A stretch of 64,000 bases of DNA from Deltaproteobacteria bacterium (lineage in GTDB: Bacteria > Bdellovibrionota_C > UBA2361 > SZUA-149 > JADZAE01): NCBI GenBank assembly GCA_020852715.1, contig JADZAE010000075.1, forward strand, positions 23,960 to 87,959, written 5' to 3'. Positions within the stretch are counted from its first letter, which is position 1. Each line of letters opens with the position of its first letter. Made by a program: the position numbers and the translations under genes. The notes under the pieces were generated by a model. That model did not search any database. It worked only from the letters and a program-made list of their open reading frames with translations, and had not been told where the DNA came from. Shown here piece by piece: positions 1 to 45,484 of this stretch.

Positions 1-191
1 ACATTATGAAATGCCGACAAGTAACCTCCAGCGTTCACATAAGACTTTAAATCAACCATGCCCTCAAGGCAAAGGTCAAAGCGTTTTAACTCGTAATATA
101 CAGCCATCAGCTGCACAAAATGCATTGATAATAATGCACTCTGACTAAATTTGGGACAAGGGTAGTCTATTTTGAGTTTTACTTTAGCCAT
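1..191 (-). CDS. Partial ORF running off the window start, unknown function (MAKVKLKIDYPCPKF...)
   Basis: The open frame on the minus strand has its ATG at 189-191 and continues beyond position 1. No domain was recognised. Confidence 0.3.
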   Translation of the reverse strand, partial: MAKVKLKIDYPCPKFSQSALLSMHFVQLMAVYYELKRFDLCLEGMVDLKSYVNAGGYLSAFHN

Positions 192-726
192 TTCGCGACG
201 TTCGACATCACCTAAAAGCGTCGCTATTTTTTTTAAATAACTCACGCTGACAACATTCGAGGGTTCAGCACTAGAATATTGGTAAGAAGTTAATAATAAA
301 TCTCACTGCTCTTTGAGCCGCGACTTTAGCTCCGGCTTAAGGGCCGAACAAAGAGCTTGATTCCAAAGTATAAATATCTGCTCAAATTTCCTTTCAGATT
401 TAACTGCGAAAATACTCTGTTCTGCTGTGAGGAAAGATAAAGCCTTAACTGCCTACTTCGTTGCGCCCAACATGAGAAGCGGTTTAATAGCTATTGCTGT
501 GGTAAAAAATATTGATCTCCCCTTATTGGTAGTATCAGCAAAGCTACCATCAGATTTCTGCTTGCCTATCAGCCAGTCAGCGGCATAATCAAACATAGCC
601 TTTATCCAATTTGTTGTTTCGAGAATTCATTATTTATACTTTCCTTTCGCCAGCAGTTGGCTCTCAATAACATAAGGGGCCATTGTCGCACGATGCTTAT
701 TTTTCATGCTAAAGCCTTAATTATCG

Positions 727-1536
727 CTTATGAAAATTGCTTTGATCATTTCCGGAATGTCCCGAACTTATAAACAGGCGTATGCCTCAATTTCTAAATA
801 TTTAATTCCGGATCTGGATTGCGATATTTACCTGCATAGCTAGAACATTGAAGGCAATATCACTTTTGCCTTAGAGGGCGATAAAGTGCAGAAAGGCGTT
901 ACGTGCGATTATACGACCACGGAAGACGAGCTAATTGCGGCCTATCATCCAAAAAAAATTATAGTCGAGCCATTTGCTCCTTTTGAGCAGGCCCATCAAG
1001 AAGTATCTGAAGGTTTAGCTAAGTTTAGTATTAGAAAATTTATCTCGATATTTTTGCAGTGACACAAAGTGAAACAAAACTTTGCTATGCTTGAGAATCC
1101 CGCGGATTATGATTTTATTATCCGCACACGCTTTGATTTAAAAATGTGTAATCCTTTCCCTTGGAAATTATTTTTAGGTAGCAAAAGGCTGCGCGGTAGC
1201 TTATGTTTTACCGAAATGCTTCAATATGGTTTTGATACGCTAAATTGCCAGGTTTGCGATCCGATTGCTATTGCTAATCCATATTACATGGATATCTATT
1301 CTTCGCTTTATGATGAAATGATGAACAATACTTATGCTCATCTTTACGAGGCGACCAAACCCGAGCTCTCCTCAGAATTTCTTTTAGCTTGGCATTTAAG
1401 GACAAATCATGTTCCGACTGTGGTATTACCCTTTAATTTTCAAATTGTCAGGCAAGAAAACCTTGCGCAAACAGCTAGCTATATCGAAACAAATAATTTC
1501 ATAAAAGAGTGGCGAGCATCTAACCCGATAAAATAG
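727..1536 (+). pseudogene. Glycosyltransferase-like (WavE/capsule-type) gene interrupted by in-frame TAG (838-840) and TGA (1060-1062)
   Basis: A single reading frame runs MKIALIISGMSRTYK...*...*...VKQNFAMLEN... through both stops. The 1069-1536 ORF in the track is in the same frame. Confidence 0.5.
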
Positions 1537-1537
1537 C

Positions 1538-2583
1538 ATGAAAAACAGCGATATTCTAACAATAATTATCCCTCTCATTAACGCGCATTCGTGCGCGAAT
1601 CTACTTACTTCTCTTAGTCAACAAACAAACTCTTCTTTTGCACTGATCATTATTGGCAATACGACTGAAATAGATAAAACGCTCCTCATTCATTATCGAG
1701 ATTGTAAAATTCTTCCATCTTCCGCTTCCACAATGAGCGCACTACTAGCTGAGGGCCTGGGTTACAGTTACACTGCTTATAGTACATCGCTTTTGCCAAT
1801 ATTTTATATAGCCTCTACTTTTGTAGCTAAAACCCTGGAGGCAATCGCTTCTAGTAAAAATAACTTCGACACACTCATGCCTGATCATGCGGTAATTGAA
1901 AATGATTGCTCAATGAAATATATCATCAAAAACGAGCATCTTGAGTACCGTGACCTGATCACAAATTTTAGTTTGTTTCCTTCCCTGATCAGTAAAACCA
2001 GAAATTGGCAGTCGTTTTTGCAGCACTTTTCACATACCAATTACTATATCTAAAATTGGTATTATGCTCTGAACCAGGCGAAAACTGCCGTACTGCTTCT
2101 TCTATCTGAGATGTTGCTATACCACCCGGAGCAACCTTTGAGCATAAGCTTTTATCTTATCAAAACAAGGAAGAGTTAAAGGCATTTGCTTTTGCTGATT
2201 TAGCAAAAAAATGCCTTTGCTCTAATCTGGATTTATATACTCGTGCTAATTATCTACTATCTGTTGCTTACTCCATTAATAACTCCAATCCATTTATTAC
2301 CTATATGTTAGCTTGCGTACGGGCTTTACTTAACAAAAAAGATGACGCCATAAAGATTATCGATAGTTTTCCTTTGAATTTAATTGAGAAAAAAGCTAGA
2401 GTTATTGAATCTATCATCACTTCTATTAATAATCTTTGCGCGAATAAAGCCAAAGGATTAAATAGTCTTGTCTTAAATGAAGAAGAACTTGGCGAACACG
2501 CCAATTGCCATGAATTTTTAGTATCACTCGAGAGAAGAACTTCAAGTTATCCGGATCCCTTAACTATAAATGACAAGGAATAG
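1538..2583 (+). pseudogene. GT2 glycosyltransferase with C-terminal TPR-like region, disrupted by an in-frame TAA and one frameshift
   Basis: The N-terminal IIIPLINAH... is a GT2-type start. The frame stays open after TAA at 2051-2053. A TPR-like helical segment continues to 2583 in another frame (…LCSNLDLYTRANYLLSVAYS…MLACVRALLNKKDDAIK…). Confidence 0.45.
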
Positions 2584-2586
2584 CTT

Positions 2587-3303
2587 ATGCCAACCGTAAC
2601 AAATAAACACATCTTAGACGTAGTCGGTGCCTTAACTAAAGAGCAATGGTATCTTTGGCTTCGCTATGGCTTAAATAATCGTCCTTACGAAACTCCTCCT
2701 ATTGTTGTGGAATACCCTGAGCTTGTTGTCTTACGTGGTGTTTATTTGCGTGAGTTGGCTGTTATGGCCCAAGCAAAGACTTTTTTGGAAATAGGAACTG
2801 CTCGCGGCTATCAAGCAATGAGCTGGGCAGATTATCTAAATTCCCAGCGCCTTATGGATGGTATCGTTTACACATTTGATATCGATGCTATGGATAAACG
2901 TATCTATAAGACACCGATGACAGGAGATCAGGTTTTTACCAGATCTGAACTATGGGAAAGCGAGGCTTGTGCTCGTTTTATCTGCTTTACGGACAGAACA
3001 AAGCAAAGCATTTCACAAACGATTAAACATAAAATTGATATGAGCTATATCGACGGACAACACGAGGAAGCACCGGTGATCGAAGATTTTGCCGAAGTCT
3101 TACCTTTTCTTCATCAAGATAGCATTGTTGTGTTCGATGATTGCGATGAACGCTTTTCCGGGGTGCAGAAGGCAGTTGCCGCTATTGCCGAGAAACTTCA
3201 AGCCCCGTATGAAATAGTTTCGTTTGAGCCTGCTGGTTACAAAATCGCCGTCATGCGTCTGGCTAATTGCGCCATTAAAGCTAATTTACCCAAGCGCAAC
3301 TAG
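2587..3303 (+). CDS. Class I SAM-dependent O-methyltransferase (CmcI/TylF-like, sugar-modifying)
   Basis: Motifs FLEIGTARGYQ and YIDGQHEE are typical of family 3 O-methyltransferases. Intact ORF. Confidence 0.7.
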   Translation: MPTVTNKHILDVVGALTKEQWYLWLRYGLNNRPYETPPIVVEYPELVVLRGVYLRELAVMAQAKTFLEIGTARGYQAMSWADYLNSQRLMDGIVYTFDIDAMDKRIYKTPMTGDQVFTRSELWESEACARFICFTDRTKQSISQTIKHKIDMSYIDGQHEEAPVIEDFAEVLPFLHQDSIVVFDDCDERFSGVQKAVAAIAEKLQAPYEIVSFEPAGYKIAVMRLANCAIKANLPKRN

Positions 3304-4076
3304 TTTTCCTGCTTTTCGCAGCTTTGACTATAATGCTGATGCTCTTCACTGTAGCCATGCATATTTAAGTGCGCTTCCTGATCACTTTTTTGTTCTAATG
3401 TCTGCGCAACGCTTAATACCTTACCACTAATCATTTCCTTACTTAGGCGGTGCAGCATGGTTTTGCCCAAATAAAAAAGCAGCAGGCTATAAGGATAGTG
3501 AAGCAGAGCCGCGATATTTAAAAATATTAGCGCGGTCAATATCTCTACTTTTTGCTGGTCAAGTTTAGAGACTTTTAGCCAATCTTTGAGATAATTTTCG
3601 CAATCAACTGAGTTCTGCTTACGGAGAAAATTGAATTCGATCACATTTAATCTATTGTTCTCATGGATCTTATTATCGTGAATCAATTCATGACAAATAA
3701 TAAAGCCGTGATTTAGCTTGGCCAGATCATAATACAGATCTCCATACTCGTAGATTCCCGCAAATTCCTGCCGTCAATCAAGAAGCGTAAAAGGCATTTA
3801 AGCTGTTCCACCGTTGACTAGAATATTCTCAAAATGAAGGTCTCCATGAAAGCGCACAGGCGACCCTTTGGCAATATATTCCCAATCAAGGCTATCGAGA
3901 ATAGTGCTGATCATTGGCACATGAACACCATTAATAATTTCCTCGGCATCAATCCGCTCATATCTAGTAAAAAACCGTTTAACTCGCTGGTAAGTTTTAT
4001 CTCGATAAAATTTAAGACAACTACTTTGAAAATTGGCACCTTGCTCAGCTACCAACTCTTTTTTCTGCCAAAAACC
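3300..4076 (-). pseudogene. APH/choline-kinase-like kinase domain (C-terminal half of the fused gene), interrupted by in-frame TAG, TAA and TGA
   Basis: The frame is the same as ORF 4077-5060: ...FFLECM*GFWQKKEL...[47 protein letters not shown].... It carries the Brenner motif HGDLHxxN, and the TGA sits where the conserved Trp of the LIDWE motif is expected. Confidence 0.6.
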
Positions 4077-5009
4077 CTACATACATTCGAGAAAGAATCG
4101 AAACGTAAACACGGACGGCATCTTAGAAAACACCTCGCTTTCGATTAAATTATAGCTATACATGTTCTCGGTTTGCGCGGTAATCTGCGGCACATAATTT
4201 CCTAAATACTTTGTGCGCTCCACCCGATCAGCAATGAATTTTTTATTAACTGAGTATTTTATTACCTTATTATTAACAAACCAGATCGCTTCATCCTCCT
4301 TTTCTAAAATATTATAACTCTCAGCGGCGCAGTTAAAATGCTCACGCGCACGATTTAAGGCTTCCAAATTCCCACTATCATACCAATCAAATTCCCGCTC
4401 TCCTATTCCCTGCGAAATTAAAAACTTCAGTCCATAGCTTTCCCCGATTTCAATGGAGCCTTCATTTTTCCCCTCTTCCATTGCCTGCCAAAAAGCCTGA
4501 TAATCCTTGATTCCCGCCAGTCCAATGTAAGGAGAAACATCACCGCTCGCCCCTTTCGAACAAATCTCTTTTACCAGACCACCTTCTTTAATTATCGAAC
4601 GATACGGGGACGTATCTTCCACCTGACAATAATGCCCCATCCAAATCTCTTCAGGCTCGGGGATAGATTCTGTGACCAGAGTATCATTGTAACAAAATAT
4701 AAAAGGGCACTGTAAAACATCTTTTGCACAAAGTAGCGAATATCCTAACCCACTTCCTTCCCCCTCGTATCGATCAACGTTGACAAAAGTAAATTTTCGA
4801 TCGGGATAAACCATTTGCAAAAAACCCATCACTGTTTCTTTCTTGTAGCCTATGGGAATAACGAGCTCGATATCAACCGGAAATTTTTCAATCACATAGG
4901 AGATGGCCGGCTTGTTGCCTATACTAACCAGTGCTTTCTTCACGTGTTTAGAAAGAGTCTTTAACCTTGCTTCTAACCCAGCAGTAGGAATAACAACTTT
5001 ATATTTCAT
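4077..5009 (-). CDS. Sugar-phosphate/phosphocholine nucleotidyltransferase domain (LicC/MurU-like), N-terminal half of a nucleotidyltransferase-kinase fusion
   Basis: KVVIPTAGLEARLKTL...KALVSIGNKPAI is the NTP-transferase signature. The likely start is MKYKVV at 5009. Alternative upstream starts are ATG at 5054 and TTG at 5060. Confidence 0.6.
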   Translation of the reverse strand: MKYKVVIPTAGLEARLKTLSKHVKKALVSIGNKPAISYVIEKFPVDIELVIPIGYKKETVMGFLQMVYPDRKFTFVNVDRYEGEGSGLGYSLLCAKDVLQCPFIFCYNDTLVTESIPEPEEIWMGHYCQVEDTSPYRSIIKEGGLVKEICSKGASGDVSPYIGLAGIKDYQAFWQAMEEGKNEGSIEIGESYGLKFLISQGIGEREFDWYDSGNLEALNRAREHFNCAAESYNILEKEDEAIWFVNNKVIKYSVNKKFIADRVERTKYLGNYVPQITAQTENMYSYNLIESEVFSKMPSVFTFRFFLECM

Positions 5010-5034
5010 AATATTAACCTTTTTAAACCCTGCA

Positions 5035-5377
5035 CTAAACTCGATTATAAGCATCAGCAATGCGCACTACATCTTCAAGCTGTGACGTCGAGCTTTCTAA
5101 ATATATAGAGTCCTCTAGCGACTCCATCTGGGACACTATAAATGGCTCAATTGTAATACAATCCCCGGCTACCAGGTCTTTCTGCTCTAAGGTATCCGCT
5201 GACTTCCCAATGTAAAGGTGTAGCGTTCCACTGAGAACATAAACGGTCTCTTTTTTTTTGCTCGTGATATTGAATGCTACACTTGTGCCCCTTATTCATG
5301 GTCAGTCTTTTAACTACATATTCGTTATTGTGCTCGAGCAATTCTTCCCGGCCCCATGGTTTCTCTGTAATTTTCAT
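5035..5377 (-). pseudogene. Small cupin (sugar isomerase/epimerase-like) with a frameshift in a 9-nt homopolymer (T9 on the plus strand, 5251-5259)
   Basis: The N-terminus is MKITEKPWGRE...GHKCSIQYHEQKK. Deleting one A from the A9 tract restores ...KKETVYVLSGTLHLYIGKSADTLEQKDLVAGDCITIEP...AYNRV*, a complete cupin. Confidence 0.6.
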
Positions 5378-5521
5378 AATGCCTCTTTTTTGAATTGATC
5401 ACATTAAAAGCGTTTAAGTATTTTATCAGCTTTTGTTCAATTGCTGACTTTAGAAAATCATCTAATGAAAATTTAAATTTGCGGGAAAGATACTCTTTGG
5501 CATCTTCTTTGATTTTTCGCG

Positions 5522-6559
5522 CTAGAGAATGGGGAAAATATAATATCCACAGATAATAGCTTTTTCGACGGCCGAAAGATTGCTCCCTTTAGCTTGCCAT
5601 TTTATCCAGCGGCCAGAATCAACGGCTAATTTTATAAATGCGTTAAAGGATTCGCTCAGTCCATATAGATTGAGGCAATATAGCAGAGCCTGAGTTTCCG
5701 CCACCCCTAATTCCCGAGCAATATTGGAGGCATGTATCTCTATACCGGGTCTAAGTAACAGGGCCTCATCGGGTAAATAATCAGTATTATATTCCTTCAG
5801 TAAGATTGTGCGTTGATTACAAATGTCTAGTGTCTTTTTATTATTATCTCGTAAACTTTGAACAGACTCGTAATCAGTAAGCTCTAAATTAAAGGCACCA
5901 ACATTACGCGTTTCAACAACTTTTGTTACGGTTTAAGCCACTACAAAAGTGGGCCGCGGATATTTATGTTGGCGACAGAATAAGTCAACTTTCTCTAAAA
6001 AATAAGCAAAGTGCTCGTGACATAGATACCCGCCTGATTGCTCTTCCGTGCCTAATTCAAATTCTATTGTCTTGTTATGTTGCTCAGCAAAGGAAACACA
6101 ATAAGAGTATAGCTCAAAAAGTCTGTCAAGAACGATATCTAAATCAAAATCTCGAGCATCGGAACTAATACTAGGGTCGATGTGAATAAATGAAAAGTCA
6201 GATAGTATATCCTCCTCATATGATTTCTTTGCCGTTGCTATAGCTTCTTCTGTGGCTAACTTTTGTTCATTAGCTCCTTGCCATGGACCACCATGGTCAC
6301 GAGCCATAAAAAGACATGGGCTAGCTAAAGATTTCACATAATCACTGAATTCTTCCGTGGAATAATTTTCTACATATCCTCCACCTAACTCTTGCGCATC
6401 AATCTGCCGTCGGCTAGCAATTAGAATCATCGGAATTTTATGATGGGCAGAAATTTGAGTACAAATATCAATGCTGTTTCTGCTCATTGGACCAAGGTAC
6501 GGCAAGGTGCAACGATTGGCCGCTATATAGCTACGAATGTATTCTCCTAGACTCCCCAT
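5522..6559 (-). pseudogene. GatZ/KbaZ-family (tagatose-bisphosphate aldolase accessory / tagatose-6-P kinase-like) gene with an in-frame TAA at 5933-5935
   Basis: IASRRQIDAQELGGGY...ARDHGGPW aligns to GatZ EATSNQVNQFGGYTG...GGDHLGPN. ORFs 5933-6559 and 5522-5704 are in the same frame, separated by TAA. Confidence 0.5.
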
Positions 6560-6594
6560 TTGCCACTAACCTTTATTGATAAGTTTGGTAGTTG

Positions 6595-7073
6595 TCACGG
6601 GTCATGAGGTTGGAAGAACTTTTCTAGAACGTGCAAACACGCTTCAGATACAGCACCATGACTGCCACTCGATTTTATTACATAAGAGGCAAATGGTTTG
6701 CTTACGGCATGAACATTAGCCGGAGCGATGGAGTAGCCGACTTCACGAAAAACATAGTGATCTAAAATGCCATCGCCCATATAGATGACACTCTTTGCTT
6801 CCCAATGTCTTTGATCCAATCTATGCGTTTGATTGTGCTGACAAGTTCCAGCGGAAATTTCATATCATCAACTACGCGCGCTTTGGTGATATCAAAACCT
6901 CTATGGTCCCCGGTGATAAAATGTATTTCTAAGTAAGGCTTGATTAGGCAAAGTGCATCATGGTCATCAGAGCCAAAAACTTTCATCACTTTGCCTTCTT
7001 TGATGTAATAGAAACGACCGTCGGTCAAAACGCCATCAACATCAAAGACAAATATTTTTGGCTCTACCTTCAT
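6595..7073 (-). pseudogene. KdsC-like HAD phosphatase (Kdo-8-P phosphatase family), frameshifted
   Basis: The N-terminal FVFDVDGVLTDG and C-terminal YMGDGILD...SSGSHGAVSEACLHVL segments match KdsC. They lie in different frames and overlap at 6762-6819. Confidence 0.55.
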
Positions 7074-7187
7074 AAAGACCTCTTAAAACCCTGTACTCGT
7101 TTGGATGACTTCCATGGCATAAGGATACCTGCTTATGCATCTATCTTGCTTCAACTTAAATAAAACTAAAATTGCCTTATTGTATCG

Positions 7188-7324
7188 TACGCAAGAAGTT
7201 AGTTGAACGGCATATTACTAAGTAATTAAGTTTTGCGTGCGGTATAAAGAAAAGCAAGGATGCTTTTCGCGGAAGCGAAACCCCGATTCGCGTCCGTAAA
7301 TGCCCATAAATAAGCCATTGATGG
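7188..7324 (-). repeat. Rep-A leader element, copy 3 (reverse orientation), ending about 115 bp upstream of the kdsC-like start
   Basis: The reverse complement matches 12312-12464 (GCCATCCATGGCTTCATTAAGAGCA...CGAATCGGGGTTTCGC...ATACCGCAC...GTGCGGTAT). Confidence 0.7.
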
Positions 7325-7440
7325 CCTATTTATGAGCAAAATGAAACTAAGCCCCATCCGGGCGGATTTTGCGAAGCAAAATCATGGGGCAGAAACTAAG
7401 CCTTCACATATTTAGTCGTTTTCGATTAGGAAATGTCAGA
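7325..7440 (+). repeat. Rep-B element, copy 1
   Basis: It shares the core ...TTTTGCGAAGCAAAA..ATGGGG...GACTAAGCCTTCACA..TTAGTCGTTT.CGAT with 28782-28865 and 38358-38440. Confidence 0.65.
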
Positions 7441-7636
7441 TTAATCATTAGTATTTTTATAATAGCGTTATTTGATTGCAATTTTTAACCATGTGAAGGT
7501 TTATCCATTTGCTTAGGGCAATGACAAAATGAATGCGCTATGGGTTTCTGCTCATATACTATGTATTAAAAATGGAAACTTATTGCATATTATATCATCC
7601 AAATTAACACTGCAGTGGAGGTTAAAAAGGAAACTA

Positions 7637-8527
7637 ATGAATAGGCCAATGAAGATATTAACTTTTTATGATGTCCAAGGTTGGGCCTGGTGGCACCGTT
7701 CCCACCATATTCAAGAAAATCTTTCTCCAGCCTTCCAATTGGATATCAAGCAAGACAAGGAAAAGTATAATCCCCTAGATTATGATATCGTCATGATCTT
7801 TGATTATTATTTTTTAACTTTAGATCATTTTACAGTACCGCCGCCGGATCGCTTGCTCATCGGCTGCAGCAACTCCCGATTAATAGATGAAATGATTTAT
7901 GTAGTTGAACAAAGCCACTGCTTGGCCGGTTTCATGAACAACTTTGGCGATTACAAAAAGATGACCGGACATCCCAATTACTTTTGCTGTCAAAACGGAG
8001 TAGATACCAGTCTATTCTATCCGCCTGCGCAACGGCCGGAAAAGTTTAAAGCTTGCTGGGTTGGCAGTCTTAACTCGATGTGTAACAAAGGCGGTGATCT
8101 AATCAAGGCCGCATGTGAAAAGGCCGGGGTGGAATTGATTTGCGTGGGAGTTGATCCCCGCTATGACAAGCTCCTCTCTCACGATCAGCTACGTGAGCAA
8201 GCATATCACCACGCTTCCGTCTTAATCTGCGCATCGGAATTTGAAGGCACCCCAAATCCAGCCTTAGAAGCTATGGCCTGCGGCGTCCCTGTTATTTCCA
8301 CCCGAGTAGGCAACATGCCGGAGCTTATTCGTGAAGGATACAACGGTATTTTAGTCAACCGTAGCGTTGACGAAATCGCTGACGCTATCAGAGTCATTGC
8401 CGCATTAGATAAGGAAACCTTAGCCATTAACTGTCGCCAATCAATCGAAAATGGTTGGACTTGGAAGCAACAAACAAAAAAGTATGAGACAATGTTTACA
8501 ACACTAGCAGCACGACGTGGCTTATAA
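7637..8527 (+). CDS. Glycosyltransferase family 1 (GT4-type)
   Basis: EFEGTPNPALEAMACGVPVIST is the E-X7-E motif. AAGGAA lies 4 nt before the ATG at 7637. The track ORF starts at 7529. Confidence 0.75.
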   Translation: MNRPMKILTFYDVQGWAWWHRSHHIQENLSPAFQLDIKQDKEKYNPLDYDIVMIFDYYFLTLDHFTVPPPDRLLIGCSNSRLIDEMIYVVEQSHCLAGFMNNFGDYKKMTGHPNYFCCQNGVDTSLFYPPAQRPEKFKACWVGSLNSMCNKGGDLIKAACEKAGVELICVGVDPRYDKLLSHDQLREQAYHHASVLICASEFEGTPNPALEAMACGVPVISTRVGNMPELIREGYNGILVNRSVDEIADAIRVIAALDKETLAINCRQSIENGWTWKQQTKKYETMFTTLAARRGL

Positions 8528-8556
8528 GAAACATCATAACGGGGTAAGTTAAAATC

Positions 8557-10056
8557 ATGACACTTTCAACACAGCCGAAAATAAGACAGTATCCCTGCGC
8601 AACGCTCTGTGACATTTCTGATTTTTTAGTACCACGAAACTCCGCATATTTAAAGATATGCAAACCAGGATTTACCCTCTCTACAAAAAGACGGCAGTGG
8701 GAATGGAACTTTATTGCCGAAAGTGCAGAAAACCTGGGGCTACTGGATGGAACAAAAATAGTGATGGGGGTAGGCACTGGTAACGAACCTCTGCTATTCT
8801 TTTTCGCTCGAACCTGCGCCGATGTGTTAGGTTCGGATCTTTATTCCGCAGATACAGATTGGAGTGTGGCGCGTTTTGAAAAGCATGAACAAATCTATAA
8901 TAGCGCTCCCTTTGATTTTCCCAAGGAAAGATTACATTTTGTCAATGCTGACATGAGGAAACTGCCGGTCGAGGATAATAGCTATGACTTTGTATGGTCC
9001 ACATCAACTATTGAGCATCCGGCATCCGCGCGTGAAGTTTACATGGCAATACAGGAAATGCTACGCGTCGTTAAGCCCGGTGGCTATGTTTTATTCACTA
9101 CTGAATACTGCGTTAGCGAGCCGCCCTATTTTCTACCGCACTTAAATACCCTAGACCCGTATTTATTCGGTAAGTATTTTTATAACAATCAGGGATTTGA
9201 AATAATCGGCGATGTCGATTTAGAATTTAACTGGCAGTCTATTACCAATGATATTTCGCTAAGAAGAAATGTTCCAATACCGTATTATAAACATTTTGAT
9301 CAGTTACAGTTTTATGCTCCGCAGAGCATAGTGCAAAGCTTAGGGTTTTCGTTGGTCGTACCAATTGGCATGGTTCTTCGCAAAATTGAAGGGAAAATGA
9401 AATCATGGGATAATTTAGGTCTCCCTCAGGTCTATCTGGATTATGCTAGCGCCGCGGAGGCATTTGACGAAAAAGAATTTAATAAATGTTATTCGTTAAT
9501 TATCAATTACGGTTTACACAACAGCCAAAGTCTCCCGCTGCAGTTTTATGCTCAGTTGGCTACCTTAATTTTACGAGCTAAGCTGGAAATAGGAAATCCG
9601 TATGACAATGAGGCGCTGCAAGTATATCAAAATGTTATTCAGCGTATCCCTTATGGATTACATCAGGATGCTGATCTACTTGATATCCTGGCCTATTACG
9701 CTTCCGGTATGGATAATAAGGAAGTCAGCTCTGAACTGTTATATTTGGTTGTTAATTCTACATCTTCCATTGCCCCTCATGCTATTTCTTGCTCACTAAG
9801 ACGAATGGAAATTCTCGCACAGCTGGGAAAAGAGGAGGAAGGAATTAATTTTGTAATCACTACCTATGGTGCCTATCTCAGCGAGGAAAAGGCTTCTGTC
9901 CCCTTTGCTAATATCATGCAAGAGATTATAAATAAATCTGCAACAAATCCTCTTTATCAAAAATTGCGTGAACGCTTAAAAGATTTACTCGAGAATCAAG
10001 TTAAAACAAGACGGCAAGAGTTAGCGGCTTTTGAACAAGCAACGAATAAGTATTAG
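8557..10056 (+). CDS. Class I SAM-dependent methyltransferase with a C-terminal TPR-like helical domain
   Basis: VMGVGTGNEPL...DNSYDFVWSTSTIEH...VVKPGGYVLF is a Methyltransf_11/23 fold. About 250 aa of helical repeats follow. Confidence 0.7.
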   Translation: MTLSTQPKIRQYPCATLCDISDFLVPRNSAYLKICKPGFTLSTKRRQWEWNFIAESAENLGLLDGTKIVMGVGTGNEPLLFFFARTCADVLGSDLYSADTDWSVARFEKHEQIYNSAPFDFPKERLHFVNADMRKLPVEDNSYDFVWSTSTIEHPASAREVYMAIQEMLRVVKPGGYVLFTTEYCVSEPPYFLPHLNTLDPYLFGKYFYNNQGFEIIGDVDLEFNWQSITNDISLRRNVPIPYYKHFDQLQFYAPQSIVQSLGFSLVVPIGMVLRKIEGKMKSWDNLGLPQVYLDYASAAEAFDEKEFNKCYSLIINYGLHNSQSLPLQFYAQLATLILRAKLEIGNPYDNEALQVYQNVIQRIPYGLHQDADLLDILAYYASGMDNKEVSSELLYLVVNSTSSIAPHAISCSLRRMEILAQLGKEEEGINFVITTYGAYLSEEKASVPFANIMQEIINKSATNPLYQKLRERLKDLLENQVKTRRQELAAFEQATNKY

Positions 10057-10213
10057 TTCCATTAATACTGTCCTCTCAACCATGTCTTAGCCAATTCAGC
10101 GTTATAATTTCTGGTCATGCTCAGCATGCCCCTACATCGTATCGCGGTTATTCATGCGGATGAAAATGTCGTGGCTACTGGGCTTATTATGAAGGAATAT
10201 GATTGGGCCCTTG

Positions 10214-12106
10214 CTATTGCTGCATGTAATCCTGTTTGTGATCAAGCAAATGTCTCCAGGCTTCCACCGTTTTATGCGCTACGTTATCCCAGGTAAAAAA
10301 TTTCGAGCGTTCATAACCGCGTTCAACCAAATCAGCCCTTAGCGTCTCATTAAACATCAGCGCAGTCATCGCTTCCACTAAATCCTCATATCTTCCCGGT
10401 TCAACATAAATGACACAATCGCCACCTACTTCCGGAATGGATCCGCGCGGGGAAGTTATAACTGCGCAGCGTTTGGCCATTGCTTCTAAGACCGGGAAAC
10501 CAAACCCTTCATATTCTGAGGGGAAAAGCAGTCCAGCTGCTCCTGCGTATAAGCACTCCAGCTCCTCTCGGCTTACGAAATCCGTAAACACAACTTCCTT
10601 GACCTCTTCTTTTTTTAGAACGTCTTGAAAAGTTACTTTATAAGGATCGTCTTTGATGCTGCCCGCGACAGCTAACATCGGTGGAAGAATTTTATCAGAA
10701 TCAGCAAATGTTCGATATAATGCTCGAGCGGATCTTAAGACAAATTCAAAGTTCTTATGCGGATCACAGGCGCCGACAGTAAGAAAATACGGTGGTCGTA
10801 AATTAAATTTCTTTAAAACATCTGCTATCTCCTGGGGCGTATAAATTCGTGGTTTATCCGGCTGATTTAGGCCGGCCATAATTACCGCAATTTTATTCGG
10901 ATCAACTCCACCATACCTGATTACATCCTGTCTAGTGCAATCAGAGATTGCCAGAATCTGAGTATTTGAGCTTATCACTTGTTCTAATCTTGAACGATAT
11001 GCGACTTTATTATCTTCTGGCCACTGATCATAGTGGTAATGCGCAGAAACCAAGGGAATTAAATCATAAAAAATTGACGAGGTTGGTAAATGATCGATGC
11101 AACGAAACGGAGAATCAAAGTTTGTTAAGATGGCCATCGGATCCAAAACGAAATAGAGATCGGAATCGGGGCGTGTTTTAGCGCTAAAAAATCCAAATTC
11201 AAATGCCTCTTGGGGTAAATGTTTACGTATTTGCTGGATTGGTGCGCGGGGCTCTACATAAAGCTTGAAACGAAAATTGGGGTATAGTTTATTTATTGTC
11301 TTTAGCAAGTTTACCGCATAATGCCCGATACCGCGTGATATCGATCCCCCAAATGCAAATGTTCGTGCATCAACAGCAATATGCAAGTTCTTCATTACTG
11401 ACATCTGCCAGGCAATTGTTTCAGCATTTGGCCAAACAAAAGTACTTTGCCCGACATCCAAAGAATTGCCTACCGGGATTACTTTCTCCAAACCAGCATC
11501 AGAAAAGGTGAGCAGATGCTCCTTCAAAGTTCCGCCTTTATTTTTTATTTTCTTAATATGTTCAATGAGCGATTTGATTAAGTTTTCTTCTTCCGAGAAG
11601 ATAATCTCTAATGTTTTCGTGGCCAAACCGTTCACCGCTATATAAGTCAAATCTTCCGAGCGGATTGACAGTTGCTGCCACTGTGCTTCATGATAAGGTG
11701 AAATAACTAGCGGGCAGCTGTGTCCATCAACTACTTTTAATATTTGTTCATCCCAAGCTTTAGAAAATGTCGCGCCAGGCTGAAGGAATACTACTAAATC
11801 ATCATTTTGTATCCAATTTAATTGGCCCAAAATATGATTATATATGGCACAAATGCTTTGCGTGGATTCGCTACGCATAAAGCCTTCCGTAAATTCCTCT
11901 AGTTGCTGGAGCCATTCTGTTGTGCCATCGCTGGAGCCATTATCAATCAAGATTAAATTATATGGACAGTAGGCACTGTGATAGAAAGATTCTAAAGTAT
12001 CGGCTAATTTCATCAGACAGTTTGTCGCCACCAAGACAATGGTTAGACGGCGACGCTTTTGCAGCATTTCTTTAACCGCCTGTAGTGAGAATGGTATCTT
12101 ATTCAT
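10214..12106 (-). CDS. Bifunctional glycosyltransferase (N-terminal GT2 domain + C-terminal GT1/GT4 domain)
   Basis: LTIVLVATNC...ILIDNGSSDGT is GT2. The C-terminal FPSEYEGFGFPVLEAMAKRCAVITS is the GT4 E-X7-E motif. Confidence 0.75.
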   Translation of the reverse strand: MNKIPFSLQAVKEMLQKRRRLTIVLVATNCLMKLADTLESFYHSAYCPYNLILIDNGSSDGTTEWLQQLEEFTEGFMRSESTQSICAIYNHILGQLNWIQNDDLVVFLQPGATFSKAWDEQILKVVDGHSCPLVISPYHEAQWQQLSIRSEDLTYIAVNGLATKTLEIIFSEEENLIKSLIEHIKKIKNKGGTLKEHLLTFSDAGLEKVIPVGNSLDVGQSTFVWPNAETIAWQMSVMKNLHIAVDARTFAFGGSISRGIGHYAVNLLKTINKLYPNFRFKLYVEPRAPIQQIRKHLPQEAFEFGFFSAKTRPDSDLYFVLDPMAILTNFDSPFRCIDHLPTSSIFYDLIPLVSAHYHYDQWPEDNKVAYRSRLEQVISSNTQILAISDCTRQDVIRYGGVDPNKIAVIMAGLNQPDKPRIYTPQEIADVLKKFNLRPPYFLTVGACDPHKNFEFVLRSARALYRTFADSDKILPPMLAVAGSIKDDPYKVTFQDVLKKEEVKEVVFTDFVSREELECLYAGAAGLLFPSEYEGFGFPVLEAMAKRCAVITSPRGSIPEVGGDCVIYVEPGRYEDLVEAMTALMFNETLRADLVERGYERSKFFTWDNVAHKTVEAWRHLLDHKQDYMQQ

Positions 12107-19824: not shown

Positions 19825-21159
19825 TCAGCCAATGTGGTGCTGCAATTCTTGGACAAGCTTATAGTTATCCGAATGACCTGTCATGCGGGCTCTCAATTTC
19901 CCCTGTAACGGCCGGCCTATCAGGAACAAATCCCCTATCGCATCAAGTATCTTATGGCGTGCCAATTCTTCCGGGAAACGTAATTCTGTATTGATTACTT
20001 TATCTTCTCCAATCAAGATAAAATTATTAAGACGTCCACCAGCAGCTAACCCGGCCTTTTGCAGTTTTTCGATATCTTTCATGAAGCCAAATGTACGTGC
20101 CGGAGCTATCTCCGATTTAAAGGTATCTTTGCCATTGAGCTTAAACTCGAAAAGCAGACGTCCTACCGGAGCGGGGTAAATTAACTCATATACGATAGTT
20201 AACCCGTCCTCCGCAGAAGGCTCTAAGCATAGGCTTTCTCCCATTTTGGCCTCGGAGAAATTTAATTCTATCTTCTCCTGCACAGCCAACTCGAACCACT
20301 GACCACCCTGCTCAACGATGCCAATCTCATCAAGCCTGTTACAAATTGTGCTTCCCGAGCCATCAAAAATGGGGACTTCATCATTACATTTAACCAACAG
20401 ATTGGTAATGCGATAAGCGTGTAGCACCGCCATTAAGTGTTCAATCGTTGATACTGTGGCACGATTAGAGCTAAGTGCTGTAGCAAATGCAGTTGTATCA
20501 ACATAATCAACAAATGCCGGAATGGTCTGGGTTTCCCCAATTTTTGAAAAATGGATACCGGAATTTATCGGTAGCGGTTCAAGTACCAATCCGCTTTTCT
20601 GACCGGAGTGTAGACACTGCCCATATAATATTGTGCTTTTAGCAATAGTTCTTTGCCCAAGATTTTTCCCCTTCCATCCGGTGGATAAAACACCACGGTG
20701 ATTCAACAAGCCTAACTTGCCAGAATCATCACCGGATAAATTAATTTCTTTGTGCTTGTTACGTTTCTTCTCTAACGCACGCGAGGCAGAAAATATTACA
20801 CTTTCAATATCAAAGGGTTTTTCGATAAAGTCAAACGCACCGCGTTTCGTGGCTTCTAATGCATTGGAAATAGTGGCGTGACCGGAAATCATGATCACTT
20901 CCGTATCTGGAGAGACCTGTTTAATTTTTTCTAAGGTCTCCACGCCATCCCAACCGGGCATCCAAATATCTAAAAAAACAAGATCAGGATTGTGTTTTTT
21001 AACAGCTTCCAGAGCTGCCTGGCCATCATGAGCGGATAGTGTATCATAACTTTCATCGCGCAGAACACTACTTAGAGAGGTGCAAATACTATCCTCGTCA
21101 TCGACAACTAAAATCAACGGCATTTTTATTTCTGTGGAAGCATTTTCCAGTCTATCCAT
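19825..21159 (-). CDS. lpxC: Response-regulator receiver (NtrC-type REC) domain fused to UDP-3-O-acyl-N-acetylglucosamine deacetylase LpxC
   Basis: The REC domain runs ILVVDDEDS...VFLDIWMPGWDG...IMISGHAT...FDFIEKPFD, with D, S/T and K all present. The LpxC part has TILYGQCLHSGQKSGLVLEPLP, ARTFGFMKDIEKLQKAGLAAGG and HKILDAIGDLFL. GAGG lies 5 nt before the ATG at 21159. Confidence 0.8.
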   Translation of the reverse strand: MDRLENASTEIKMPLILVVDDEDSICTSLSSVLRDESYDTLSAHDGQAALEAVKKHNPDLVFLDIWMPGWDGVETLEKIKQVSPDTEVIMISGHATISNALEATKRGAFDFIEKPFDIESVIFSASRALEKKRNKHKEINLSGDDSGKLGLLNHRGVLSTGWKGKNLGQRTIAKSTILYGQCLHSGQKSGLVLEPLPINSGIHFSKIGETQTIPAFVDYVDTTAFATALSSNRATVSTIEHLMAVLHAYRITNLLVKCNDEVPIFDGSGSTICNRLDEIGIVEQGGQWFELAVQEKIELNFSEAKMGESLCLEPSAEDGLTIVYELIYPAPVGRLLFEFKLNGKDTFKSEIAPARTFGFMKDIEKLQKAGLAAGGRLNNFILIGEDKVINTELRFPEELARHKILDAIGDLFLIGRPLQGKLRARMTGHSDNYKLVQELQHHIG

Positions 21160-25516: not shown

Positions 25517-28189
25517 TTAGGCGCGAGTATTGTTCACGACATCTACTCTACCCCGCAAGAAAGGATATTTACTACCATCTGATAACACGCCGGCAATATG
25601 CTGAAAAACCGCTAGATACCGAGGTATGCGGTGGCTCCAATCATGCTCAGCATGAGCAGCTTCTAACATCAATGATCGGCGAAAATCTGTGCTTCGAGTT
25701 CTTTCGATTGCCCAACAAATCGTATTACGTAACGCTGTGCTGGAATAATCATCAAACAAGAATCCATTGCCTTTACCCGTCTGATCATTAAAGCGATTCA
25801 AGGTAGCCGAAATACCGCCGACATTTCTAGCGATAACTAAATTTCCCGCAGCCAAGGCCTCAAGCTGGGTTAATCCACCCGGTTCAAACCGCGAAGGCAT
25901 TAATGCAAAATCACTGGCTGTAAACACCTCCATAGCAAAGTCATGCGGCATAAAATCAAATATGCCTACTACTCTGCCCGGGAAGCAGCGGCGCAAGTGA
26001 TCGACCATGCCACAAAAATGTTCAGACATATTATCACCATCAACACGTGGCCCGGCAACAATGATCTGCGTATCGCCAAAACGCCTGAGCATATATTCCA
26101 TTACGCTGCAGTTATCTCCCGCAGCATTACCCATCAGTAGCTGAATCCCTTTTTGTTCGACCAATCGACCAACAAGAGAAAGAACTATTTTATTGCCATC
26201 CTGATGCAAGCCAAAATTCTTTTGCATACGAATTTTTGCTGCGTTCTTGTAGCTTAGAAGCTGTTCAAAATAATGCGCTGCATCTTCTGAGCTACCTGCG
26301 GTTACCGTGCGACCAAGATCACGTAAAGCACCTTTCCCTATACGTGTTACAACACGGCGTAAGTCGCGCTGATCAACCCCATTGCTGATACCAAACAAGG
26401 CGTCGCGTTGTTTCCAAATTAAATGGCTTAATCCATCGCTGCCTTCATTGGATAATAACTGTTGTGCATAAGGTTTACTAACTGCGATTACCGCTCCATT
26501 TAAGTGATGAATGGCGGCGGCCGTCATGTTAAAGAAATTTTTCTGATTTGGATCCATCAATCCTTCATAATGGATCGGGTTTAATTCCAACATCGGAAAC
26601 AGACTCTGATTATCATGATGATTGGGGAATCTGCCATGATAATCACGGCCACAATTATGAATTAAGTGAATGGTTTTACAACCACGCAGTTGGTCATTCT
26701 CGCTGTATCTTTGATCAAGCTTTAAGAAAACGGGAATCAAAGCACCGATCCAGTCATTTGACAAGATCAGCTGCGGCTTAATACCATAGGTAGGATTTTT
26801 CATCACCTCCAAGGCACCGCGACAGAGGAAAATTGCACGACGCAATTGCTCATCACCAAGTAAACGCGGATAGAGACGATCTGCGTAGCGACAATGACGA
26901 ATCAAAACAACACGAATCAGTCCGCGCTCAGCAATATAAATATTGGCTCTTACTGAATGCGGCTGTTGTGCCCATTGAGTGGTATTAGCTCTATGCGTTG
27001 GACCAAAAGGGATTTCAATTTCACCGGCATATTTTGGACGAACCAATTCACCGTTAATCATCACCCCCCGACGTAAAGTTGTCTGCGCATCGGCGTGCTT
27101 ATTCCCTTGATTTTGCTCATAAAGCGGGCCAATAAAAGTAACGGGAATTTGGCTTGCTGAAAAGGCATTAAGAAATCCTTCCATTACCTGTGCAATGCCA
27201 CCGAATGTCGCTTGCGGTCCTTCGGGTGATACTAAGACTACTTCACCGACACCGATATTATTGATCGCCGCCGCCAGCACGTTAGCACGCTCTGCCTCTT
27301 TAGATCCGGCGACTGAAGCTGATTGGCGCTTTAAGGCCTCATCATATACTCGCCCCAAAGACTCACAAAGCTTTTCGTTATCTTTAGTCGCCTCAAAAAG
27401 GATTCGGCTTAAATCACGCTTTGGACCATTAAGATACATTTCATGAACTTGGCTCTCCAGCTGACGATAATTGTGAATCTGTCTAACAATCAGCTGCGTG
27501 GCATCAAAGAAATGCTTTTCCCTGACCACGTGTGTCCTTTCAAATAATTCACGGCTATCTTCGTTGATGCGAAATTTCGCATCATGGGTAAAACCATTTC
27601 CCTGCCAAATTTCCTTACCATCACGTGTATCGCGAGCATAACAAGTAGCTCCATACCAACCACGCCTTAAAGGTGGTAAAGACTTTTTAACGTAATAATG
27701 GCCCTCTTCGATGGTGACAATATCATCGGCGGTAATAGACAAATCTTCCCAATTTTCGGGAATATCATCATAGCTACCCCAGCGAACAATCAATTCGGTT
27801 TTACTGAAAATATCTTTATCAATGAAAAAATTTATGTAGTAAATAGCGTCGCTGCCACTGACATTAACATGTCCGTGATCTTCAAAGCGAAAGGCTTCCC
27901 TTAACGCGGGCAAAGCTTTAACGGGCTTTACTCGTTTCCGAGTTAAGGCGCTAATATTGCTTTCTAGCTCGTTCTCGCCTTCAATTACCTTATCAACTAT
28001 GATCTTTACGATTTTCTTTTCGGTAATCGAATCTACTAACGGAGAATCCTCATACATTGCCTTAAGCAAATTCGTATTAACGTGGATATCCTTCTCTATA
28101 ACCTTCGCCGTATTTTCTTGCTTAGACGGATTAAATTCGTTTACGCAAATTGTAATGGCCATGAATTCCTCAAAAATGGCATTCGACAA
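25517..28189 (-). CDS. glgA: Glycogen/starch synthase (GT5) with a ~290-aa N-terminal extension (possible carbohydrate-binding module)
   Basis: The C-terminal FALMPSRFEPGGLTQLEALAAGNLVIARNVGGISATL is the GT5 signature. The KTGGL box is replaced by ATFGGI. Confidence 0.7.
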   Translation of the reverse strand: MSNAIFEEFMAITICVNEFNPSKQENTAKVIEKDIHVNTNLLKAMYEDSPLVDSITEKKIVKIIVDKVIEGENELESNISALTRKRVKPVKALPALREAFRFEDHGHVNVSGSDAIYYINFFIDKDIFSKTELIVRWGSYDDIPENWEDLSITADDIVTIEEGHYYVKKSLPPLRRGWYGATCYARDTRDGKEIWQGNGFTHDAKFRINEDSRELFERTHVVREKHFFDATQLIVRQIHNYRQLESQVHEMYLNGPKRDLSRILFEATKDNEKLCESLGRVYDEALKRQSASVAGSKEAERANVLAAAINNIGVGEVVLVSPEGPQATFGGIAQVMEGFLNAFSASQIPVTFIGPLYEQNQGNKHADAQTTLRRGVMINGELVRPKYAGEIEIPFGPTHRANTTQWAQQPHSVRANIYIAERGLIRVVLIRHCRYADRLYPRLLGDEQLRRAIFLCRGALEVMKNPTYGIKPQLILSNDWIGALIPVFLKLDQRYSENDQLRGCKTIHLIHNCGRDYHGRFPNHHDNQSLFPMLELNPIHYEGLMDPNQKNFFNMTAAAIHHLNGAVIAVSKPYAQQLLSNEGSDGLSHLIWKQRDALFGISNGVDQRDLRRVVTRIGKGALRDLGRTVTAGSSEDAAHYFEQLLSYKNAAKIRMQKNFGLHQDGNKIVLSLVGRLVEQKGIQLLMGNAAGDNCSVMEYMLRRFGDTQIIVAGPRVDGDNMSEHFCGMVDHLRRCFPGRVVGIFDFMPHDFAMEVFTASDFALMPSRFEPGGLTQLEALAAGNLVIARNVGGISATLNRFNDQTGKGNGFLFDDYSSTALRNTICWAIERTRSTDFRRSLMLEAAHAEHDWSHRIPRYLAVFQHIAGVLSDGSKYPFLRGRVDVVNNTRA

Positions 28190-36863: not shown

Positions 36864-38165
36864 TTAAGTTAAAGCTGCGCCGCAAGCTGCATTAGCACTA
36901 TTGATTATATTTGATATAAGCACCTTAGCTTTAGCTGCAGTTGCTGTGTGAACATTGCCACGTATTTGCGAATAAGACCTTCCGATGCTCATGAAGTATT
37001 CACACCATACCACTCTAGACATGATATCAGGTCCACCTACTCCCGAAATATCACATGACTTACTGTAAGTTGATGTATAGGTAGTGAGGTAAGAACTTGA
37101 GCTTGGAGCAATTCCGGAGCAGGCATTATAAGTATTCTCTCCTCTCCAATTATTCCGAACATTTGGGCCCAAATCATTCCATTGCTCTTCAGCATTCTCC
37201 AAAGCTGAGATACTGCTTGAGTTACCATTAAATGAATAAACGCAGTCATTGCCTATAGTGCGAACGTAGCTTATAATATCACGCGAGCAGCTAAAGCCAA
37301 CTTGTGGATCTAGAAACTCATATGTAGTGACTCGACGAAAACCTAGCTTTACCACGGCCGATTCCGGCACACGCACTTGAGCAGAATCAACTTTTCTAAG
37401 AACATGTGCTACCAAAGTCCCTGCTGAATTCAACTTCGTAAGACTAGCTTCTGACTTAAATGGCAGAAGAATAGCACCTGTCGTGGCATTTATGATTTCG
37501 CCTTCCTCGCAATTCTCCTTGGCCATTGCTAAAACTGATCCATAATCTTCCACAGTCTGAAATAGCTTATCTCCTTCTTGCAAGCACTTATCACACATCG
37601 GAGAAGTTCCTGACTTAAGAGCTAATTTTTGCTGTAATAGTTTAGCTGCCGTAAGGTTATTAGTAAAAGTAGTTAAACCAGTAACAGCAAGTGGGTGAGC
37701 AATATTCAAGGGAGGATACTCTCTTAACTGACCCAAAGGTTTTAATGCCACCACCGGAGAAATATTGGGGCTATAACTAGCATATGTCCTTGCCGTTGGA
37801 CGATAAGGCTTCAATTATGTGCTGATGTTATATGCTAGCATGTAAATATCCAATTCCAAATCACGAAATCCCCTATCTGATTTTTGATAAGATTTTACCT
37901 TCCAAGTTTGGAGAGTGGTATTAAAATAAATATCCGAGTCCTTAGCAAAAACGATAGACACATCCTTACCGTTATAAAAAGCAACTCTACCCGGTAAGAG
38001 CGCATTATACGCGGGGCACATAGCCACAGCAAAAGAGCAAGTTGCACTTCCTACAGTTAGAACAGTATTAAAGCAGGCTCGAAAATTGGGGATAACATAG
38101 GGAGCGGGAGTGGCAGTTTGGGCAGATGCCGCAGAAAACATCGAAAGAGCCAATGTTGCTCCCAA
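36864..38165 (-). pseudogene. Secreted protein of unknown function with a single in-frame TAA (37815-37817)
   Basis: ORFs 37815-38165 and 36864-37814 share one frame (...YNIST*LKPYRPTART...). There is a signal-peptide-like N-terminus (...LGATLALSMFSAASA/QTA). The start codon is uncertain: TTG at 38165, with an open frame upstream. Confidence 0.5.
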
Positions 38166-38315
38166 ACCAACAGTTCGTAAACTTTTTAATATGGAAGTGT
38201 GGGGATATTTCTTTTTACCTCTTTAATAACCTTCATTAATAAGCCAAACCAAACCTCATAACCTGGAGATACCTTGACTAATCAGGCCTTCCGGCTCAAC
38301 TGCTTCGGTAAAATG

Positions 38316-38520
38316 AATCCATTCACGATTTTTACTGAGTTTCTATCCAAAAGCCCCAAGAGGGGGCAAGTTTTGCGAAGCAAAACTATGGGGGGATGAA
38401 GACTAAGCCTTCACAAGATTAGTCGTTTCCGATGAGGAAACGTCAATAAAATTAAAAATATCCATTTTTTATAATACCCCCAAATTTTTAATAAATCTTA
38501 TCCCGTGAAGGCTTACGGTA
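38316..38520 (+). repeat. Rep-B element, copy 3
   Basis: It matches 28745-28937. Confidence 0.75.
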
Positions 38521-38639
38521 AAATTTAAAATGACAACTTAGCCTAAGCTTTTCCGCCACTTACCCCAAGACAGTGCAACCTCCTTCGCACACAAGTAAAG
38601 CTTGGTTATGATTTTTCAAACGCACATAATTAATCGTGG

Positions 38640-39190
38640 CAGACACGAAGTGGGAACGTGCGCAGCGTGAGTGTTTCAAAAAGAATCTAGCGCCAGCTTC
38701 ACGAACTTCCAAATTGCCAAGGCGTTTTTATGGAACGCGGACCCACATTGAGAGCGAGAGCGAACAACTGGGTCGCCTACGCTACAAAGGCACACGATGG
38801 TTGGCGGAACCACAAACCACGCTTGCCGGCATTCTCACCGCCGGCGACCCAGACTCGGCTACGCCGAGGTCATGGGTCGCGTTCCACAGCGTATGCGGAA
38901 TTTTCACTCGTCCATGGCGCTTACACGTTACGCACAAAATAATTCGGATCTTTTTCGAGTCGCGATGGCCAACGACAAAATTGCCCGAAATCGCACCCAG
39001 CTTATGTTTAGGAGAAGAGCAAGTTTGAGCCGGAGACTAGGAAGACAAGCGGCGAGCCCCAATCGGAAGCCTCCGAGCGGCTTCCGGCCCTGTAACTCTT
39101 CATACCTAACGCTAGTAAATTAAAACAAGCTCACAAACTCCCACAGTGTAGGAAACTACATGCGGAGCCGCGCAGTCTGACAGCGTATCC
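38640..39190. repeat. Rep-C: GC-rich (about 55% by eye) MITE-like element, copy A, with terminal inverted repeats TGGAACGCGGACCCA ... TGGGTCGCGTTCCA
   Basis: The island contrasts with the AT-rich flank and carries only spurious overlapping ORFs. Its conserved ends are shared with 48840-49200. Confidence 0.6.
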
Positions 39191-39209
39191 GGCCAAAATT
39201 GCTCTTCTC

Positions 39210-41957: not shown

Positions 41958-42149
41958 AGAATCACCCTCAAATAAAAATTTTTGCTGACTATAGCAGAGG
42001 AGAAGCGTTTTAAGAAATAGCCTTATTTGAGATAAAGTAAACGAATTGGGCGCTGCGCCAACTGGAGCAGAAAAGCAAAACGCCCCGGCATAGATGATTT
42101 CTTACTATGCCGAGGCGTTTTACAGGGAAATTAAGTGAGCTCTTTTAGC

Positions 42150-45476: not shown

Positions 45477-45484
45477 ATCCCCTC

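Follow-up and report, generated by a model that had tools for sequence, protein, structure and literature searches.

A decayed glycan-biosynthesis island, and the conserved four-gene cassette within it, in the genome of an uncultured deltaproteobacterium

How a run of adjacent sugar-biosynthesis genes comes to be riddled with in-frame stop codons, and whether anything beyond ordinary decay needs to be invoked, is the question raised by one end of a 64,000-nucleotide stretch of DNA (hereafter the window) from the metagenome-assembled genome (MAG) of a Deltaproteobacteria bacterium (GenBank assembly GCA_020852715.1, contig JADZAE010000075.1, positions 23,960 to 87,959 of the forward strand). An initial annotation had described positions 727-7073 as a glycan locus inactivated mainly by nonsense codons rather than by insertions or deletions (indels), and had attributed this to recent inactivation under a G:C-to-A:T mutational bias of the kind seen in host-restricted bacteria, or to selection for shutting the pathway down. 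The analysis described here bears out that the glycan locus is real and pseudogenised in a locus-specific manner, the decayed island spanning from about position 1 to 7073. This ~7-kb surface-sugar biosynthesis cluster is very probably a dead island undergoing the ordinary neutral decay of an abandoned pathway, with no unusual mutational process at work, and the interpretation first placed upon it (nonsense bias, G:C-to-A:T pressure, and host restriction) is at best weakly supported.

The evidence is carried chiefly by four broken genes, which are found together as a cassette in other genomes. Their lesions were mapped by six-frame translation of positions 1-7600 together with tblastn of intact homologues against the window.

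3438-5006, minus strand (from 5006 to about 3438 in reading direction): pseudogene of a sugar-1-phosphate nucleotidyltransferase fused to an APH-type kinase, with TAG at 4077-4079, TAA at 3798-3800, and TGA at 3774-3776 in one continuous frame.
5038-5377, minus strand: pseudogene of a small cupin (mannose-6-phosphate-isomerase-like), with a +1 insertion by which an A8 run is now A9 (5253-5261).
5397-6559, minus strand: GatZ/KbaZ-like pseudogene, with TAA at 5933-5935 and a 1-nt frameshift at TTTTCCCC near 5535-5545.
6550-7073, minus strand: pseudogene of a KdsC-like HAD phosphatase, in which one nucleotide has been deleted near 6810-6822 (AAAGA[A]CAT) and a TGA stands in-frame at 6595-6597.

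Homology was shown by tblastn to run on across every one of these lesions, with intact full-length homologues aligning on both sides of each. Every lesion position listed in the initial annotation was recovered upon six-frame translation, including the homopolymer frameshift of the cupin, whose homologues read HE-x-K-x-ETVY across the A run. The list had overlooked the HAD TGA and the GatZ-like frameshift, and the count within 727-7073 becomes eight nonsense codons and four frameshifts instead of seven and three. Five of the nonsense codons and three of the frameshifts are verified by homology, all in the four cassette genes, and the remainder lie in two further open reading frames (ORFs), genes 1 and 2, which are described below. 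The verified frameshifts are without exception single-base changes at short runs or doublets, namely A8 to A9 in the cupin, a T4/C4 stretch in the GatZ-like gene, and AA to A in the HAD gene. After the GatZ-like frameshift, the last ~45 residues stand in another frame and the usual stop following "...NVI" is absent; a TAG at 5522-5524, considered as a ninth nonsense codon, was rejected as an out-of-frame consequence of the same frameshift. In five-way alignments of each of the four cassette genes, replacements unique to one lineage were most numerous in the window copy.

The nucleotidyltransferase-kinase fusion offers the closest view of what has been lost. A total of 2,726 homologues of ~523 aa were retrieved among 5.8 billion proteins, with a best identity of 60-61%, and the identity to homologues over the full length, about 57-61%, is undiminished past each stop. 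Precomputed domains in the homologues comprise PF00483 at the N-terminus and PF01636 at the C-terminus, that is, an NTP_transferase domain followed by an APH domain in one polypeptide, and both the G-x-G-x-R-L and the HGDLHxxN motifs are visible in an alignment of 120 homologues; for the copy in the window, Pfam returned nothing at E<=0.001. As had been proposed, the TGA at 3774-3776 falls at a conserved kinase tryptophan, W412, which is Trp in all 120 homologues. When the near-invariant columns of the alignment were considered (at least 97% conserved, n=107), the window copy was found to deviate at 6 of them against a homologue mean of 0.9, with at least 5 deviations being reached by only 4 of the 120 homologues. 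The deviations include not only the replacement of W412 by a stop but also G13E, in the G-x-G-x-R-L nucleotide-binding loop of the nucleotidyltransferase. Such an excess of change at near-invariant residues argues that these are pseudogenes rather than recoded genes. The frame of the fusion also continues to 3300, ~45 codons past the C-terminus of the homologues, and the extended tail (3300-3437, minus strand) adjoins a methyltransferase gene of convergent orientation at its 3' end, and may reflect either loss of the original stop or a lineage-specific addition.

Similarity that is undiminished past each stop, with a TGA placed exactly at a Trp codon position, could in principle also be explained if stop-codon readthrough, recoding or programmed frameshifting allowed the genes still to be expressed, but the chance of this is close to nil. 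TAG, TAA, and TGA are each found in-frame, and each also serves as the terminator of intact genes in the window, whilst the in-frame stops occupy Trp, Gln, and variable E/D/K, K/N/D, and N/D positions that no single decoding rule would unite. Moreover, three of the four cassette genes are also frameshifted, and a catalytic-loop Gly has given way to Glu. No suppressor tRNA is present in the window, the only tRNAs being one for Cys and two for Pro, beyond which an Rfam scan of the window returned nothing. Reassignment or recoding of stop codons was rejected on the grounds of terminator usage and tRNA content.

The lesions are, furthermore, sharply confined. About 12 of them fall within 5.4 kb of coding sequence as opposed to one candidate in the other 57 kb, a disparity far beyond chance, and the damage within the 64-kb window is a feature of the locus and is not dispersed. 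Coding sequence is dense in the other 57 kb, where long unbroken ORFs encode, among others, glycosyltransferases, adenylosuccinate synthetase, a P-type ATPase, a membrane pyrophosphatase, and ClpS with ClpA; the neighbouring glycosyltransferase cluster was rightly described as intact, its large ORFs at 7.5-17 kb being uninterrupted. The single candidate is the following.

36864-38165, minus strand: ORF with a signal peptide, interrupted once by an in-frame TAA (37815-37817), the only candidate nonsense lesion in the other 57 kb.

This ORF and its lone TAA had been noted earlier as those of a secreted protein and were found as described; no Pfam match was obtained for it. Twelve intergenic gaps were also checked, none of which holds a frame as depleted of stops as the decayed frame at 1-707 (described below). 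The clustering of the lesions is evidence against erosion across the genome as seen in host-restricted bacteria, at least as far as these 64 kb go, and the suggestion of host restriction was not borne out by a window in which the other 57 kb is tightly packed with genes, has a single further candidate for a nonsense pseudogene, and shows no decayed, stop-poor frame in its gaps.

Clustering likewise argues against random sequencing error, which would need a consensus error rate of 3-4% confined to 7 kb. An assembly or consensus artefact, whereby miscalls in a low-coverage or strain-heterogeneous part of a MAG contig disguise genes that are intact in the organism, does deserve consideration: the source is a MAG, the verified frameshifts all sit in short runs, and glycan islands are often strain-variable. 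Cooley & Wright (2024; PMC11017572) reported that the choice of assembler (with MEGAHIT yielding the most pseudogenes) and low coverage both inflate the count of pseudogenes with internal stops. An artefact is nonetheless highly unlikely here. At a stop yield of 3.4-4.9% per substitution, the observed stops would call for ~165-235 miscalls in 5.4 kb beside 57 kb of long intact ORFs, and the stops are accompanied by missense changes at invariant residues, as would be the case for real divergence. Inspection by eye of the sequence around the stops revealed no shared motif of the kind expected from methylation-type systematic error.

Does the predominance of nonsense codons then call for a special mutational process? 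When all single-base changes in the codons of the locus were enumerated, a stop was created by 4.8% of them if the spectrum was taken as uniform, by 3.4% if transitions were given a 2:1 preference, by 4.6% for an illustrative bacterial spectrum, and by 4.9% if only G:C-to-A:T transitions were allowed. Eight stops in 5.4 kb would correspond at these yields to about 165-235 substitutions or 3-4% divergence, with which the figure derived from the excess of missense changes at conserved sites (roughly 2%, with wide error) is compatible. With four frameshifts observed, about 30-60 substitutions would have occurred for every frameshifting indel. Mutation-accumulation studies usually give about 10 substitutions to each indel, with wide variation between species, and indels at the island are somewhat scarce yet still in range. 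Binomial tests were performed with the expected nonsense fraction set at 0.35, 0.5 or 0.6 according to the assumed substitution-to-indel ratio, giving P=0.11-0.59 for the verified 5:3, P=0.026-0.44 for 8:4, and P=0.0013-0.17 for 12:4, the last of which takes in the unverified stops of the ORF at 1-707. The claim that the locus was inactivated mainly by nonsense codons is hence correct as a 2:1 count, but the verified proportion is only 5:3 and the P values for these two counts, 0.026-0.59, lie within the range of neutral decay. A nonsense-to-frameshift ratio of 2:1 (verified 5:3) is what neutral decay is expected to give at about 20-30 substitutions per indel, and is only mildly high at 10:1. 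The predominance of nonsense codons is a real count and not strong evidence for a special process; a 2:1 excess over frameshifts alone is no sign of one.

The mutations themselves tell a similar story. The ancestral residue can be deduced at four of the five verified stops, two of which are clear G:C-to-A:T transitions, namely the kinase-fusion Trp to TGA and the GatZ-like Gln, conserved in all four homologues compared, to TAA (CAA to TAA at 5933-5935). To this extent the proposed G:C-to-A:T bias has some substance, but the remaining two point to transversions: the column of the kinase-fusion TAG (E 37, D 33, K 15, and Q 4) makes GAG or AAG the likelier ancestor of the stop, and that of its TAA, mostly K (48), favours AAA to TAA, an A-to-T change. 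For the HAD TGA, no codon one step away from the stop was found among the four homologues compared. Amongst ~12 single-step missense changes at conserved sites, 6 are G:C-to-A:T transitions and 3-4 are A:T-to-T:A transversions, of which N122I, H503L, and F252Y are examples. A share of about half for G:C-to-A:T transitions is in the usual range for spontaneous bacterial mutation, and the mixed spectrum at the island bears no hypermutation signature.

It is against these numbers that a localised, substitution-biased process has to be judged. Under such a process, a deaminase-type or damage-driven burst of G:C-to-A:T changes (deaminase action or oxidative damage on an island that is transcribed or was acquired horizontally), or an indel rate that is unusually low in this deep-branching lineage under strong AT pressure, as in host-restricted bacteria, would have inactivated the island in a substitution-heavy, indel-poor regime; if this were true, genes of the island would be lost chiefly through nonsense codons. 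The low P values of the 8:4 and 12:4 counts under the 10:1 model speak for it, as do the Trp-to-TGA and Gln-to-TAA changes together with the 6 G:C-to-A:T transitions amongst the conserved-site missense changes, and the slightly AT-richer composition of the first 8 kb (GC 0.39, as against 0.40-0.50 for most of the window). However, the spectrum is mixed, with transversions implied at both the TAG and the TAA of the kinase fusion and A:T-to-T:A changes amongst the missense; a spectrum made up purely of G:C-to-A:T transitions would hardly raise the stop yield (4.9% compared with 4.8% when uniform); the verified set stands at only 5:3; and the rest of the window carries no pseudogene load, giving no sign of AT-driven erosion of the genome as a whole. 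We consider this process distinctly unlikely.

For the neutral decay of an abandoned pathway, we infer the following order of events from the lesions, their clustering, the cassette, and the excess of change at invariant residues, all of which are observed directly. The pathway would have become dispensable, or a first knockout would have occurred, leaving all of its genes to drift neutrally; the drift would have accumulated about 2-4% substitution, of which roughly 4% would create stops, yielding the eight nonsense codons, and the four single-base frameshifts would have been added during the same drift. The presence of more than one lesion in several genes indicates that the loss is not very recent and fits neutral drift after loss of the pathway. 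The "recent" inactivation first proposed can accordingly be upheld in a relative sense only, given several multiply hit genes and an estimated 2-4% neutral divergence, which suggest that the genes have been drifting for some time. Selection for loss and neutral loss are not separable with these data.

A precedent is provided by Yersinia pestis, whose O-antigen cluster carries several inactivating frameshifts and point mutations when compared with that of Y. pseudotuberculosis. There too, several genes of a contiguous glycan cluster bear independent point lesions between intact flanks. The island described here differs in that no sister genome displays the intact ancestor, in that it belongs to an uncultured, deep-branching MAG, and in its nonsense-to-frameshift ratio of 2:1. 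It is one more case of an abandoned, drifting surface-glycan locus, here in an uncultured lineage; there is little biological surprise in it, this being a known kind of event now met in a lineage without a close sequenced relative.

Several points weigh against neutral decay as the explanation and should be given fair hearing. The source is a MAG, a type of genome in which assembly can introduce spurious internal stops. Were there as few as 10 substitutions to each indel, the ratio of nonsense codons to frameshifts would be mildly (P 0.026 for 8:4) to clearly (P 0.0013 for 12:4) high. The excess of lineage-unique replacements in the window copies could stem in part from an outgroup position of the window lineage with respect to the four reference genomes. 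In addition, a close relative of the source lineage was not found in the collections searched, leaving the ancestral codons, the timing, and the neutral rate to be estimated only indirectly: ClpA (49676-51946) reached a best identity of 56% among 185,579 species-representative genomes, in which a neighbouring 499-aa gene had no relative at all, and two exact DNA patterns with the stop codons masked gave zero matches in metagenome contigs. Judging from these searches, the source MAG seems to be of a lineage without a close sequenced relative in the species-representative collection.

What the island once encoded can be glimpsed from genomes in which the same genes are whole. The loci around four kinase-fusion homologues were examined, and in all of them counterparts of the broken genes were found as a cassette whose order is conserved across distant bacteria. 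A HAD phosphatase of 174-179 aa comes first, followed by a GatZ-like protein of 381-399 aa, a cupin of 112-115 aa, and a nucleotidyltransferase-kinase of 523 aa.

7906-11572, Marinomonas colpomeniae (L003): cassette intact.
4819-9572, Aliiglaciecola lipolytica (L004): cassette intact, with one methyltransferase gene inserted; Maf and flagellin genes lie about 4-8 kb downstream.
5157-9572, metagenomic contig carrying the homologue P0022 (NCBI name Sulfurimonas sp. UBA12504; L005): cassette intact, with one methyltransferase gene inserted; a flagellin gene lies a few kb upstream.
5953-9572, unclassified MAG (L006): cassette intact.

A fifth locus (L001) carries a variant in which SIS and ribulose-phosphate-epimerase genes replace those of the GatZ-like protein and the cupin. 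No cassette protein reaches a curated family cut-off. The intact HAD homologue from L006 scored 59 bits on TIGR01670 (KdsC, Kdo-8-phosphate phosphatase), for which the cut-off is 106.95, and the HAD gene is best placed, on this score, in the HAD subfamily neighbourhood of KdsC only. For GatZ_KbaZ-like (PF08013, cut-off 26.7 bits), the window copy scored 18.4 and its intact homologues 19-20 bits, the other threshold for GatZ/KbaZ membership being the 568.8 bits of TIGR02810; by its similarity scores the protein, a TIM-barrel enzyme, is a distant relative of GatZ/KbaZ (the non-catalytic subunit of tagatose-bisphosphate aldolase) rather than a member, and a PDB sequence search gave no relative for it. 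A search of the literature for a characterised version of the cassette returned nothing relevant.

By analogy with known systems, the cassette probably represents an uncharacterised NDP-sugar pathway serving a surface or flagellin glycan. Following the logic of GmhA/HddA/GmhB/HddC and of AmgK-MurU, the GatZ-like protein and the cupin would convert a common sugar phosphate, the APH-type kinase domain would phosphorylate its anomeric carbon, the HAD enzyme would remove the distal phosphate, and the nucleotidyltransferase domain would make what we infer to be an NDP-sugar for a surface or flagellin glycan. The pathway to GDP-D-glycero-alpha-D-manno-heptose employs the same set of activities, with GmhA as isomerase, HddA as anomeric kinase, GmhB as HAD phosphatase, and HddC as nucleotidyltransferase; the variant locus even has a SIS protein, and HddC weakly matches the nucleotidyltransferase domain of the cassette (NF049965, E 3.2e-7, below the cut-off). 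The cassette departs from it in that its kinase is APH-type and fused, and in that its rearranging enzymes are a GatZ-like protein and a cupin, not GmhA. AmgK-MurU, in which an APH-fold anomeric MurNAc kinase works alongside a MurNAc-1-phosphate uridylyltransferase, resembles the cassette in pairing an APH-family kinase with an NTP-transferase for the two-step activation of a sugar, and MurU gives a weak match (NF045761, E 0.0012) that is far below the family cut-off. Unlike AmgK-MurU, the cassette has the two activities fused (523 aa, nucleotidyltransferase then kinase), stands in a context of glycan synthesis or flagellin glycosylation, and possesses dedicated upstream enzymes. This widespread, conserved four-gene cassette would be a better target for study than the pseudogenes themselves.

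The remaining genes of the island are less readily interpreted.

730-1536, plus strand: gene 1, a family-less 268-codon ORF with in-frame TAG at 841-843 and TGA at 1060-1062.
1538-2583, plus strand: gene 2, an orphan ORF set with a 171-aa ORF running to TAA at 2051-2053 and a putative nonsense codon and frameshift.
2587-3303, plus strand: intact class I SAM-dependent methyltransferase, MCC6933566 (PF13578, E 6.6e-15).
1-707, minus strand, continuing past the left edge of the window: N-terminal part of the orphan ORF IT292_09935, a putative pseudogene with four in-frame stops.

The C-terminal 149 aa of gene 1 are annotated as MCC6933563 / IT292_09950. One remote homologue (P0122; 25% identity, pairwise BLASTP E 9e-16) can be aligned from residue 1 onwards through the two stops, each of which corresponds to a Tyr in the homologue, such that the case for a pseudogene, built in the same way as for the cassette genes, is a weak one here. 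No Pfam match was obtained for gene 1, and its earlier label as a glycosyltransferase-like gene found no support in any family match. The "GT2-TPR" label of gene 2 fared no better: no Pfam match was seen even at E<=10, and among 1.84 billion representative proteins it matched only its own 171-aa and 92-aa fragments. Beyond its TAA, the frame of gene 2 meets no further stop until 2179, and a second frame is free of stops from about 2113 to 2583, which places the change of frame between about 2113 and 2179. As for the methyltransferase, at ~2.2 lesions/kb a gene of 717 bp would stay unhit by chance with a probability of ~0.2, and its intactness is therefore no evidence of selection.

The stops of the ORF at 1-707 all lie in one frame (TAA 630-632, TGA 627-629, TAG 453-455, and TGA 303-305, with an adjacent TAA-TGA pair at 627-632), and this frame contains only 4 stops in 235 codons as compared with 11-24 in each of the other five. 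A database search with IT292_09935 returned only itself, with no match in Pfam or PDB. It is probably another decayed gene, by which the decayed zone would extend to the left of 727.

Elsewhere in the window, a single ORF at 19825-21159 (minus strand) joins an N-terminal response-regulator receiver domain to a full LpxC deacetylase domain, which is an unusual fusion, and an 890-aa protein encoded at 25517-28189 (minus strand) has a glycogen-synthase (GlgA) domain in its C-terminal half only, with the N-terminal ~420 residues giving no match. The region at 38000-48000, in which the genes for a SERCA/PMR1-type P-type ATPase and the membrane pyrophosphatase are located, has a GC content of 0.45-0.50 compared with about 0.40 elsewhere, and is possibly a horizontally acquired or compositionally distinct block.

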